From positions 62,001-126,000 of the forward strand of contig JAFGPW010000008.1 in NCBI GenBank assembly GCA_016935985.1: a stretch of 64,000 nt of DNA. The letters run 5' to 3'. Position numbers: made by a program. Positions 57,001-60,000 of this stretch are shown here, one piece after another (the first letter of the stretch is position 1; each line of letters starts with the position of its first letter). The DNA is from Candidatus Woesearchaeota archaeon. Lineage in GTDB: Archaea; Nanobdellota; Nanobdellia; Woesearchaeales; JAFGPW01.

Positions 57001-60000
57001 ATGTAGAGCATGGTGGCGTAAGTGTCGATCCGGGACGAGTTGTAGAAGCGGTTGTTCATCCTGTCGATCAGCCCTGCCGTTATCTGGCCGTGGATGTCGA
57101 GCTCGTACTCCGCCATCGAGAGGAAGGTCTGATGCACCATCGAGCCGATCGACGCGTCCGCCTCGTCGTGGCCCTTGACATCGAGGATCAGTATCCCGCC
57201 CCGGTGCCTGTTGAGATGGAGGTTGCGCAGCTTCTCGCCGATCACATCCTTCCATCCGCCTTCCGATTCCGCGAGCTCCTTCTCGGCCCGCGCGATCCGC
57301 TCATCCAGGTCGAACCTCTTGCTGAAGTCGACGAAGGTGATGTGGTCGCCGCCGACCGATCCCGAGAGCGGCATGATGCCGCCGTAGATGTCGAAGTTCG
57401 CAATGCTTGGCAGGTCTCCCGGCGACGGCTGGTTCTGCTTCATATGGCTCACGAACTTGCGGAGCTGCTCCTCGTTCCTCCTGTTGTTGATCAGGTAGTT
57501 CATGTCTCTTCACCCTTCTATCCTCATCGCAAGAGCCTCCTGCCTGGTATAAAAGGCTTGTTAATCGTGCCTCGCGAGCGGAGCTGGCCGTCCGCGGCAG
57601 GCGCACGCCTAGAAGATGTGTATCCCCTCGAGCGACTCGCGCACGAGACGCTTGCACCGGCGCATCAGGTCGCGCTGCGCCTCGTCCTGGGTCGCGCGGT
57701 CGACCTGCTCGAGCCGGTCGAGCAGCTGCATGTAGAACCTGATGAGGTCGCCCTCAGGCATCGAGGTTCCGTCGAGTATCTGGATGAATTTCAGCCGCTT
57801 GTGGACAGGGAAGACGAGCGCCGACGCCGTCTCGAGATTGTGCCACCACTCTCCCTTCCTGAGATGGGGATGCTTTCGCAGCAGCCCGACGAGCTGCGGG
57901 ACGCACGCGGCGATGCGCTTCCTCCTGAACTCGATCTCGCGCTTCTCCTCATACACGAGCGCGCCGATGACGACGAGGACCGAGAGCTCGTCCCACTCGA
58001 ACGGGAAATCCGCCGCGAAGAGCTGGGAGATCTCTATCTCGTCGGAGAATATCCTGGTCGTGAACGCGCCGAGCCAGGTGAGCCTGCGGTCGGGCGTGAT
58101 ATATCCCATCCGGGTCAGGTTCTGGACCGCCTTGTCGAACCGGTTCCGTATCCCGCGCACGACCCTGCCGTCGAGCGTCCCCTTGGTCTGCTGGAAGGTG
58201 TGGAAGTTCATCTTCAGGATCTGGGCGATCTCCTCGTCTGTGTGCAGGTGCACGAGGTTGAGGATCGTGTTCGTCGACATCCGGAACTGCGAGAGCAGGG
58301 GGTCGACGTCCTGCTTGGTGATTTGCTCGACCTTCGGGACGTCCGCGACCCTCCGGTTGATGACCGCGACCGAGAGCCCTTCCTTGTCCATCCCGCGCCT
58401 GCCTGCCCGTCCGGAGATCTGGAAATACTCCTTCGACGTCATGAACCTGAAGCCCTGGCCGGTGTACTTGCGCATCGAGTCGATGCAGACCGTCTTCGCC
58501 GGGTAGTTGATGCCGACGGCGAAGGTCTCGGTGGCGAAGAGGACCTTGACGAGCCCTTCGGCGAACAGCGTCTCCACGATGTGCTTGATGTCGGGCAGAA
58601 GTCCGGCGTGGTGGAACGCGATCCCCTTCGCGAGGCACTCGCGCAGCAGCCGCGCGGACGGCAGGCCCGCCACCTCGGGGCTCACCCCGTCGAACTTCCT
58701 CGCGACGAGCGAGGCCATCCGCGCCTTCTCCTCTCGGCCGAGGAAGTCGTCCTTCCGCTTCAGCTCCTCGGCGAACGCTTGCGTCTTCTGGCGCGAGAAG
58801 ACGAAGTAGATGCACGGGAGCTTGCCCCGCCGCGAAAGATCCCGGATGAGCGTCATGGTGTCGGGCGCCGGGATGCGCTGCCGGCGGTGCCTGCCGTGCC
58901 TGCCGCGGAGCGACCGGTGGTCAGGGTAGCCGTCGAGCTTCTTGCGCTCGGCGATCGCCTGAAGCGTCGTGATGCCGAGCTCGGCGTCGTAGAACCTGCG
59001 CACGAGCGGCACCGGCCGGTGGGTGTGATGGACGATCGAGACCGTATGCCCCTTGGTCTTCTGAACCCATGCCGCGAACTCCTCGGCGTTCGGGATGGTG
59101 GCTGAGAGGAACAGGAAGCGTATGCGGTCGTGCGAGAAGATGATCGACTCCTCCCAGATGTGTCCGCGCTCGAAGTCGGAGATGTAGTGGATCTCGTCCA
59201 TGATGCAATAGGCGACGTCGTCGAGGACCTTGTCCTTGATGATCGCCATGTTGCGGTAGACCTCGGTCGTCATGATGATGACCTGGGCCTTCGGGTTCTC
59301 CACGATGTCGCCGGTGATGAGGCCGATCGCGGCATCGCCGTACTGCTCGCGGAAGTCGCGGAACTTCTGGTTCGAGAGCGCCTTGATGGGCGCGGTGTAG
59401 ATGACGCGCTTCCCCTCCTGCAGGTACTTGTCGATGATGTAGTCGGCGATGAGCGTCTTGCCCGAGCCTGTCGGCGCCGAGACGAGGACCGAGTCGCCCC
59501 GCTCGACCGCGTGGATCGCCTCCTCCTGGAACCGGTCGAGGGTGAAGGAATGGAACTGCATGGCGCTTCCAGAACCGCGGCGAGCATATAAATGTTCGGT
59601 TTCAGGCGAGCTCTTTCCGCCGCCGTTGCGCAGCTTCTTGCGGCCCTGTCCGGGCCTTGATGTGGTCGAAGAAGTACCAGCGCTGCGCCCTGAAGGTCTC
59701 GGCCTGCCTGACGATGAGCGATTCCGCGTGCGCCTCGTCGAGCTCGCGCGTCTGGAGCGCGTAGGTGAGCACCCGCGCGAAGTAGAGGGGCTTGAGGCAC
59801 TCGACCGCGCGCGCCCGGACCTCCGGGTCGGTGTGGAGCGTGAAATAGGCGAGGATGCCGTAGACGAGCTCTGCCCAGAGGTTCTCGGAGATCATCACCT
59901 TCTGCTGGGCGAAGGCCGCGTCGAGCTCACGGAAACGATGGGGCTCGAGGAGCATCTCCAGGTACGAGCGCTGCTCCCGCCAGTGGGTCTCCATGACCGA

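Follow-up and report, generated by a model that had tools for sequence, protein, structure and literature searches.

The window analysed here, a stretch of 64,000 nucleotides from Candidatus Woesearchaeota archaeon, encodes a DExH helicase of 650 amino acids (57609..59561, minus strand) that is a genuine and intact archaeal member of the Mtr4/Ski2/HelY (DSHCT) family and is naturally arch-less. Family trees point to bacteria as the likely source from which the order Woesearchaeales obtained the helicase early on, and it has probably spread onward among archaea. By analogy with its studied relatives, we consider there to be a good chance that it is a bacteria-derived DExH helicase, with its arch secondarily lost, that uses ATP to unwind RNA in the 3'-to-5' direction and works on its own.

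Gene and domain architecture

The open reading frame runs from an ATG start to a TAG stop with zero internal stops, and the AlphaFold2 model of its product reaches a pLDDT of 92.8 and a pTM of 0.88. The features that follow all lie on the minus strand. The RecA1 domain corresponds to Pfam DEAD (residues 10-161, 59079..59534, E 1.3e-26) and contains motif I (Walker A, residues 29-36, 59454..59477), which the alignment identifies as the bacterial APTGxGKT type and not the eukaryotic AHTSAGKT type, together with the DEIH of motif II (residues 122-125, 59187..59198), assigned from sequence and alignment. Pfam, the model and the alignment place the RecA2 core (Pfam Helicase_C, residues 306-390, 58392..58646), with an Mtr4-type beta-hairpin region at residues 360-376 and motif VI at residues 381-390, and the SF2 core motifs Q, I, Ia, II, III, IV, V and VI are all intact in the alignment. 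The DSHCT or ratchet domain (residues 494-641, 57639..58082) is recognised by Pfam at 29 bits against a cut-off of 22.7, and the model and alignment locate the ratchet helix at residues 603-623 (57693..57755). With the register taken from alignment spacing, R608 of this helix would match Mtr4 R1026, and Q612 and D615 would occupy the positions of Mtr4 R1030 and E1033.

At the site of the arch in Mtr4/Ski2 and most HelY proteins, the alignment and the model reveal a short linker within the winged-helix domain (residues 461-472, 58146..58181), where a helix at 453-459 of the AlphaFold2 model continues into a helix at 465-484. In the 10 rows of the archaeal clade, 6-11 residues lie between the columns of residues 461 and 472 (10 in this helicase), compared with 246-295 in nine of the ten Mtr4 rows (87 in the other) and 249-341 in the Ski2 rows. 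A Pfam scan of the 650-aa protein found neither of the arch families PF13234 and PF21408. The reading frame, Pfam, alignment and model thus all agree with the preliminary description, in which a DExH helicase of 650 aa carries a DSHCT domain and lacks the arch insertion.

Distribution among archaea

The helicase gene occurs in 133 of the 301 sampled Nanobdellota genomes, counts that include the unpublished genomes G244 (with the gene) and G243; at a threshold of E <= 1e-30, 136 genomes matched, three of which were discarded as Hel308 (27-29% identity). The gene is common in Woesearchaeales (132/218, approximately 60%), as had been described, and was found in one of 83 genomes from other orders. 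The earlier description also cited a 2024 survey that called the COG4581 group exclusively eukaryal. That survey did find zero archaeal COG4581 proteins in its 294 genomes, but its dataset comprised archaea and eukaryotes only (PMC10946056). The COG4581-type assignment of the present helicase follows from the tree and the DSHCT domain, and within the open-licence PubMed Central and bioRxiv literature no description of the archaeal group was found.

Bacterial relatives and probable loss of the arch

In sequence searches, the closest non-archaeal relatives were bacterial HelY-like proteins. Below the archaeal clusters, the top matches among 1.84 billion representatives include proteins of 710-810 aa at 410-455 bits, and among 20 of these clusters that were looked up, all six carrying an organism name were bacterial; single-copy eukaryotic Mtr4 scores at most ~367 bits with the helicase. 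Mtr4/Ski2 do lie far nearer to the protein than Hel308 does, as had been described, but the HelY-like proteins of bacteria are nearer than either.

The main tree comprised 81 rows and 637 columns with the arch removed (LG+F+G4, SH-aLRT/UFBoot) and was accompanied by a PMSF tree and a 306-row FastTree; the PMSF site frequencies derive from an unconstrained guide tree, a choice that works in favour of the free tree. Unusual composition marks 22 tree rows, and rows P0164 and P0193, labelled eukaryotic by identifier range and left out of the 81-row set, both group with bacteria. The archaeal clade, with 2 of its 10 rows unlabelled as to organism, is supported at 98.6/98, and it forms one clade at 100/100 with the short-arch and arch-less bacterial rows, a set in which 14 of 32 are unlabelled. 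Within the 81-row tree, the archaeal clade joins an eight-row group that includes five named Bacillota (92.5/95), and eukaryotes and giant viruses form a clade of their own (99.7/98). The nesting recurs in the PMSF tree at 99 and 100, and the FastTree agrees with 0.994 for the clade with short-arch bacteria.

Bacterial HelY (M. smegmatis MSMEG_3885 / Rv2092c; S. coelicolor SCO1631) shares with the archaeal helicase the RecA1-RecA2-winged helix-DSHCT layout, the bacterial-type motif I and the ratchet aspartate. The assayed HelY proteins belong to the actinobacterial branch, whereas the subfamily of the helicase is the uncharacterised short-arch one, whose members from Bacillota, Ozemobacteraceae, Wallbacteria, Poribacteria and Armatimonadota share the 100/100 split with it and reach up to 47% core identity. 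The insert at the arch site mostly measures ~120-270 aa in actinobacterial and cyanobacterial HelY, 88-135 in the short-arch kin and 10 in the helicase.

Among seven scanned bacterial proteins, PF21408 (the Mtr4-like stalk) scored above cut-off in two, a short-arch Ozemobacteraceae protein and an actinobacterial HelY, and since these two relatives keep the stalk, the arch is older than these bacterial lineages. Arch-less forms also recur in bacteria (Omnitrophota/Planctomycetota/Fibrobacterota, Acidimicrobiia and Hakubella), and on both grounds the absence of the arch in the archaeal helicase is likely a secondary loss. The arch-less helicases of Omnitrophota/Planctomycetota/Fibrobacterota resemble it in size (620-720 aa), domains and large subfamily, but they form a separate clade with Q as the ratchet residue and a linker often of 11-25 residues; no characterisation of them was found in the open-licence literature. 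A single arch loss common to these helicases and the archaeal clade was rejected (AU p <= 0.002).

Predicted function and the exosome

By analogy with Mtr4 and M. smegmatis HelY, the helicase would load on a 3' single-stranded RNA tail laid across both RecA domains, the beta-hairpin (360-376) would split the duplex and the ratchet helix (603-623) would pull the strand through. Its role may be to remodel structured RNA or ribosomal particles as an optional factor; 3' ends released in this way could be trimmed by the exosome, with dedicated docking not assumed. Without the arch, the helicase would also be without the surface used in Mtr4 for adaptor proteins and structured RNA. Homology is the basis on which RNA specificity and a cellular role are ascribed to it. 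HelY fails to unwind with DNA as the loading strand, as cited in PMC8931766, and co-purification of HelY with ribosomes has been reported.

The ratchet glutamate, called invariant in Mtr4/Ski2 in PMC4267639, corresponds to E1033, and position 615 is Asp in 10/10 archaeal-clade rows. According to the same paper, yeast Mtr4 without the arch unwinds at a rate near wild-type, and arch loss combined with a ratchet change abolishes unwinding (PMC4267639), so activity of the arch-less archaeal helicase cannot be assumed.

The preliminary description had the helicase feeding RNA to the archaeal exosome. On such a reading, which we regard as unlikely, a bacterial helicase stripped of its arch would have been convergently recruited as a dedicated cofactor, binding the Rrp4 cap and passing unwound RNA on to the Rrp41/Rrp42 ring in an Mtr4-like manner. 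The closest structure in the fold comparison, in a list that contains no HelY entry as competitor, is MTR4 6c90 (TM 0.84), which is compatible with such a role; 6c90 aligns continuously with the helicase and hence lacks the arch, an absence that we take to be engineered. Rrp4 is present in 38/38 helicase-bearing genomes tested, and this genome carries Rrp4, Rrp41 and Rrp42, as had been noted, on contig C6 with the helicase on a different contig, C9. A search of this genome (92% complete) for Csl4 (PF10447) gave no match, and therefore its exosome cap may differ from that of model archaea. An aRNase J is also present. However, exosome core genes occur in 295 of the 301 genomes, irrespective of the helicase, against 133 for the helicase itself, so that the exosome mostly exists without it. 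Homologs of Rrp4, Rrp41, Rrp42 and SBDS number zero in 82 helicase neighbourhoods (708 kb); the helicase adjoins Rrp4 in 0/38 genomes and lies 14-17 kb away in two, where ~1-2 would be expected by chance on our own estimate. Moreover, the nearest kin live in bacteria, which are not known to possess an exosome. Since helicase and exosome genes are neither linked in the genomes nor co-distributed in an informative way, the proposed feeding of the exosome was not borne out, and the stand-alone enzyme remains our preferred reading.

The surrounding genes offer no conserved context. A glycosyltransferase lies upstream of the helicase in the window and a SpoIIE-type phosphatase downstream, neither of which recurs in at least 3 of 83 helicase loci, and no conserved gene neighbourhood was found across these loci, the commonest real neighbour appearing in 6/83 without a Pfam match. 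The commoner neighbour clusters in the 83 loci are ORFs antisense to the helicase itself. A scan for sigma-70-type promoters returned 0 sites, a promoter type that is uninformative for an archaeon.

Alternative origins and the comparison with Mtr4/Ski2 and Hel308

An ancient vertical archaeal lineage, whose sister would be either the short-arch bacteria or bacteria as a whole and which most archaea lost, or which even served as donor to bacteria, appears improbable as an account of the same data. The archaeal clade is indeed deep and diverse (40-61% identity), and two small groups within it come from relatives of Thermoplasmatota-titled genomes, with one of the two branching as sister to the remainder. 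Among 13 regrafts of the archaeal clade, four (LG) or three (PMSF) were kept, all of them inside the short-arch bacterial group or at its base; a position as the sister of the short-arch and arch-less bacteria taken together was not rejected (AU p 0.065-0.086). Constraining all bacteria together gave p values of 0.097 (LG, fast search), 0.029 (LG, longer unfinished search) and 0.007-0.009 (PMSF), so that bacterial monophyly is weakly rejected under LG. However, regrafting the clade as the sister of bacteria as a whole was rejected (p 0.0005/0.001), and an arch-less donor cannot account for bacterial kin with an Mtr4-homologous stalk. Vertical descent would also require loss in nearly all archaea, given 0/294 genomes in the survey (PMC10946056) and 1/83 in sister orders.

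That the archaeal proteins are the sister group and a minimal, ancestral form of eukaryotic Mtr4/Ski2, as first described, is now very improbable and largely refuted. Its attraction lay in the PDB sequence search, where the reported E-values were reproduced (MTR4 6c90, 1.6e-102; Ski2 4buj, 1.2e-98; Hel308 2va8, 4.7e-44) and Mtr4/Ski2 lead by sequence as by fold, though HelY entries are absent from both lists. Hel308 likewise lacks an arch, and core identity to eukaryotic Mtr4 (39-42%) is near that to bacterial kin, with means of 43% for short-arch bacteria and 41% for Mtr4, so that plain identity barely tells the groups apart. The helicase shares with Mtr4 (MTREX/Dob1/FRH) and Ski2 the fold, the DExH and RNA-path motifs, the beta-hairpin, the ratchet arginine (R608=R1026) and the DSHCT domain; it differs from them in the missing arch (stalk plus KOW/fist in the winged helix), N-terminal extension, R1030/E1033 pair and C-terminal SLY motif, and in its bacterial-type motif I.

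Against this origin, the AU test rejected a single clade of the archaeal proteins with Mtr4/Ski2 (p 0.003/0.001, 0.006/0.0009, 2e-6/2e-4), and two strong branches (the 100/100 and 99.7/98 splits) separate the archaeal clade from eukaryotes. Two diagnostic columns are common to the archaeal clade and bacteria and none to the archaeal clade and eukaryotes; the eukaryotic motif I, ratchet glutamate and SLY motif are all missing. The clade looks like a sister of Mtr4/Ski2 when bacterial HelY is omitted, and once these proteins are sampled it nests among bacteria. Membership therefore stands for the wider Mtr4/Ski2/HelY family and not for the Mtr4/Ski2 clade (AU p <= ~0.006). A root on the archaeal stem, as an ancestral form would have it, was rejected by AU (p 4e-5/4e-4) and kept by the SH test under PMSF (0.074); the Hel308-based root is unstable, with 5 (LG) or 6 (PMSF) of 11 positions kept. 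A scan with the Mtr4/Ski2 alignment over 10/64 collection parts gave 592 prokaryotic matches, of which the best 80 reach at most 43% identity, with bacteria and small archaea on a par and no Asgard-titled record among them. Occurrence mainly in one DPANN order is also a poor fit with the Asgard origin of eukaryotes, as presented in PMC10946056.

Hel308/Hjm and ASH-Ski2 share with the helicase the Ski2-like SF2 core, the winged helix, the ratchet and the absent arch. In contrast to Hel308, with which it has 25-28% core identity, the helicase scores 187 against a cut-off of 1200 in the NCBIfam Hel308 model, and DSHCT replaces the Hel308 C-terminal domain; ASH-Ski2 carries an N-terminal zinc-finger domain (PMC10946056) that the helicase lacks. 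A role as a DNA helicase backing up Hel308, which is split into two distantly encoded halves here and across the order, is scarcely credible despite an arch-less shape like the Hel308 core (TM 0.71-0.77), given motifs, hairpin and DSHCT of Mtr4/HelY type, the inability of HelY to unwind DNA-loaded duplexes (as cited in PMC8931766) and similar occurrence of the Hel308 C-half (30/39 genomes with the gene vs 32/41 without) and N-half (38/39 vs 37/41). As to a replacement of Hel308, the gene showed no association with either half, and replacement of DEAD-box helicases, whose genes occur in 38/39 genomes with the gene and 32/41 without, was rejected.

Implications

The arch-less helicases extend the archaeal Ski2-like repertoire by a further group beside Hel308, ASH-Ski2 and Brr2-like proteins, one not found in the genome set of the 2024 survey (PMC10946056). 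Apart from a warning about sampling, they have no bearing on the origin of eukaryotic exosome helicases. Recruitment to the exosome, if true, would amount to the Mtr4-exosome partnership having been re-invented independently in minimal form, and would mean that a bare core is enough for exosome channelling. In yeast Mtr4, the arch and the ratchet residues compensate for each other, according to PMC4267639, and these small, naturally arch-less enzymes may serve as test material for the contributions of the arch versus the ratchet residues.

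Fold and gene context of the helicase

The 650-aa helicase is encoded by an intact minus-strand ORF (window 57609-59561), in which the complete set of helicase motifs is preserved and Pfam matches DEAD, Helicase_C and DSHCT. The preliminary description was right that the arch is missing, as neither Pfam arch family matched and the arch site holds 10 residues versus about 250-340 in Mtr4 and Ski2. Its E values against solved structures were also reproduced (MTR4 6c90, 1.6e-102; Ski2, 1.2e-98; Hel308, 4.7e-44), and the NCBIfam Hel308 models scored far under their cut-offs. The AlphaFold2 model (92-row alignment; pLDDT 92.8, pTM 0.88) found its best fold match in MTR4 6c90 (TM 0.84), with Hel308 structures lower (0.71-0.77).

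On the same strand, the gene is flanked by a SpoIIE/PP2C-type phosphatase (window 56565-57503, minus strand, 105 bp away) and a GT2/mannosylglycerate-synthase-like glycosyltransferase (window 59602-60825, minus strand, 40 bp away). Neither is a conserved neighbour, and the commonest neighbour reaches 6 of 83 helicase loci. Farther along (window 60939-62144, minus strand) lies a putative class A beta-lactamase-family protein in this DPANN archaeon, assigned by family match (Pfam Beta-lactamase2, E 2.7e-46), whose N terminus is predicted to hold a membrane segment.

Phylogenetic placement among bacterial relatives

When 1.84 billion representatives were searched exhaustively, proteins of about 710-810 aa, scoring 410-455 bits, came next after the archaeal clusters, along with numerous further arch-less proteins of 640-700 aa; the 6 organism-named clusters among 20 checked were all bacterial (Wallbacteria, Bacillota, Armatimonadota and Desulfitobacteriia). 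Single-copy eukaryotic Mtr4 topped out at about 367 bits in a search covering only proteins >1138 aa. In the species-genome scan, which covered 2 of 64 parts (an estimated 22,000 or so motif-bearing stretches), Bacillota, Poribacteria and Ozemobacteraceae (43-47% core identity), together with arch-less Omnitrophota, Planctomycetota and Fibrobacterota, came directly behind the archaeal proteins. On these results, the DSHCT helicase family is common in bacteria. The statement that this group is "exclusively composed of eukaryal sequences" does stand in PMC10946056, but it reflects what that study sampled, namely 294 genomes from archaea and 10 from eukaryotes, and the paper mentions neither HelY nor Woesearchaeota. 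The Desulfotomaculaceae HelY-like helicases (P0123, P0125-P0132) are about 1215 aa long, with a Cys-containing short arch and a long N-terminal extension (about 470 aa) in which helix-turn-helix (PF12728) matches fall. Giant viruses form a further DSHCT branch (viral contigs L157-L236; proteins mostly 720-900 aa, inserts 91-124 residues).

A FastTree of 306 rows placed the archaeal clade (0.998) within a bacterial clade (0.994), apart from eukaryotes and viruses. This placement recurred with 81 chosen rows, arch excised (637 columns), under LG+F+G4 with ultrafast bootstrap (SH-aLRT/UFBoot): archaeal clade 98.6/98; archaeal, short-arch (88-135 residues) and arch-less rows 100/100; archaeal plus Bacillota-containing group 92.5/95; eukaryotic Mtr4/Ski2 plus viruses 99.7/98. 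The PMSF quick tree gave 99 for the archaeal clade and 100 for the wider group, in which 16 rows carry no organism label. Joining the archaeal clade to Mtr4/Ski2 was about 88-116 log units worse and was rejected (AU p, LG+F+G4/PMSF, 0.003/0.001; second test, 2e-6/2e-4), the PMSF site frequencies being biased toward the free tree. Among 13 regrafts of the clade, the only survivors sat inside the short-arch bacterial group or branched at its base. A root on the archaeal stem, required by the idea of an ancestral form, was rejected by AU (4e-5/4e-4), although under PMSF the SH test did not reject it (0.074). The root position is otherwise unstable and the trees single out no donor; bacterial monophyly was only moderately rejected (LG p 0.097, then 0.029; PMSF 0.007-0.009; incomplete constrained searches). 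No Asgard-titled record was among the best 80 of 592 matches, and nothing exceeded 43%, in the Mtr4/Ski2-alignment scan, which is not a direct Asgard-genome search. The proposed sister relationship to eukaryotes therefore falls: judged by these trees, the helicase is not an archaeal ancestor of Mtr4/Ski2. It is a genuine member of the known HelY/Mtr4/Ski2 family, in a form that naturally lacks the arch; no description of this form in archaea was found in open-licence PubMed Central and bioRxiv.

Probable repeated loss of the arch

Of 7 bacterial proteins scanned with the Mtr4-like stalk profile, 2 exceeded its cut-off, one a short-arch protein from Ozemobacteraceae and the other an actinobacterial HelY, so an arch likely already existed before these lineages diverged. 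Arch-less proteins occur separately in the archaeal clade, Acidimicrobiia, Hakubella and the Omnitrophota/Planctomycetota/Fibrobacterota group, where they are widespread (L252, L257-L260, L262, L264, L266, L267, L273, L279, L283-L285, L289, L303, L308; other bacterial arch-less or shortened-arch loci L263, L275; L290). Tree tests rejected one loss common to this group and the archaeal clade. Given a likely early arch, scattered arch-less forms and this rejection, repeated secondary loss appears the most likely origin of the arch-less state. The residues agree with this: motif I has the bacterial form, the ratchet helix carries Asp at its fourth-turn position, which many bacterial rows share (Glu is constant there in Mtr4/Ski2; PMC4267639), and the helicase lacks the eukaryotic C-terminal SLY motif; the diagnostic columns, small in number, are 2 bacterial-type versus 0 eukaryotic-type. 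In Melainabacteria, DSHCT helicases have a shortened arch.

Distribution in archaea and split Hel308

Across 301 high-quality genomes of the phylum (including the unpublished G243 and G244), 136 matched and 3 weak Hel308 matches were removed, leaving the helicase in 133, of which 132 fall among the 218 Woesearchaeales genomes and 1 among the 83 from other orders. The record titles of 43 helicase loci are mostly Woesearchaeota or Nanoarchaeota. Around two Thermoplasmatota-titled genomes (G301, G304) the helicase is sporadic (3/31 and 4/31, relatives counted; L244, L434, L436-L440), some copies sitting on contigs >120 kb, and Hel308 is unsplit in both genomes, contrary to Woesearchaeales. These proteins form two separate small clades, one nested within and one sister to the remaining archaeal clade, which suggests that the helicase was likely passed onward between archaea. 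Several records titled "uncultured Methanosarcinales archaeon" also carry it (among them L008, L010, L012, L015, L016, L019); the L019 title is probably wrong, because that genome has the split Hel308 typical of Woesearchaeales.

In the window's own genome (G000), Hel308 consists of two distant genes outside the window, a 221-aa RecA1 half (G000:C4:7247-7909, minus strand; L402:1745-2410) and a 538-aa RecA2-onward half (G000:C6:87661-89277, plus strand). Across the order, 75 of 80 genomes encode the N-half as a short frame of its own (217-350 aa), and in 62 of 80 the C-half covers only model positions of about 200-700; no paper on this split was found in open-licence PubMed Central and bioRxiv.

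Exosome linkage and proposed role

On the proposal that the helicase feeds the archaeal exosome, Rrp4, Rrp41 and Rrp42 are indeed encoded in this genome, on a different contig from the helicase. The core, however, occurs in 295 of 301 phylum genomes whether or not the helicase does, and its presence is thus uninformative on a link. No exosome-operon homolog was found in 82 helicase neighbourhoods (708 kb), and Rrp4 never adjoined the helicase in 38 genomes with positions compared. As missing linkage does not preclude a physical role, a convergent function as exosome cofactor retains a small chance but seems improbable. In Thermococcales, the exosome-network helicase is ASH-Ski2, acting via aRNase J and Csl4 (PMC7144898); here aRNase J and a DEAD-box helicase are encoded, and the profiles applied (PF10447 for Csl4) detected neither RNase R/II nor Csl4. 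Rrp4 (L323:5438-6301 on G000:C6, plus strand) carries a roughly 60-aa C-terminal tail, rich in repeats of Arg, Gly, Asp and Tyr.

The helicase combines an intact motor and an Mtr4-like fold with no arch, bacterial kinship and optional presence. Because yeast Mtr4 without its arch unwinds at a near wild-type rate (PMC4267639) and M. smegmatis HelY separates the strands of RNA duplexes with a 3' tail (cited in PMC8931766), it would be expected to translocate 3'-5' on RNA, driven by ATP, with a hairpin separating the strands. More tentatively, the archaeal helicase might act as a stand-alone enzyme that remodels ribosomal particles or structured RNA, a role in keeping with Streptomyces HelY, which co-purifies with ribosomes and has only a marginal knockout phenotype (PMC7157823).
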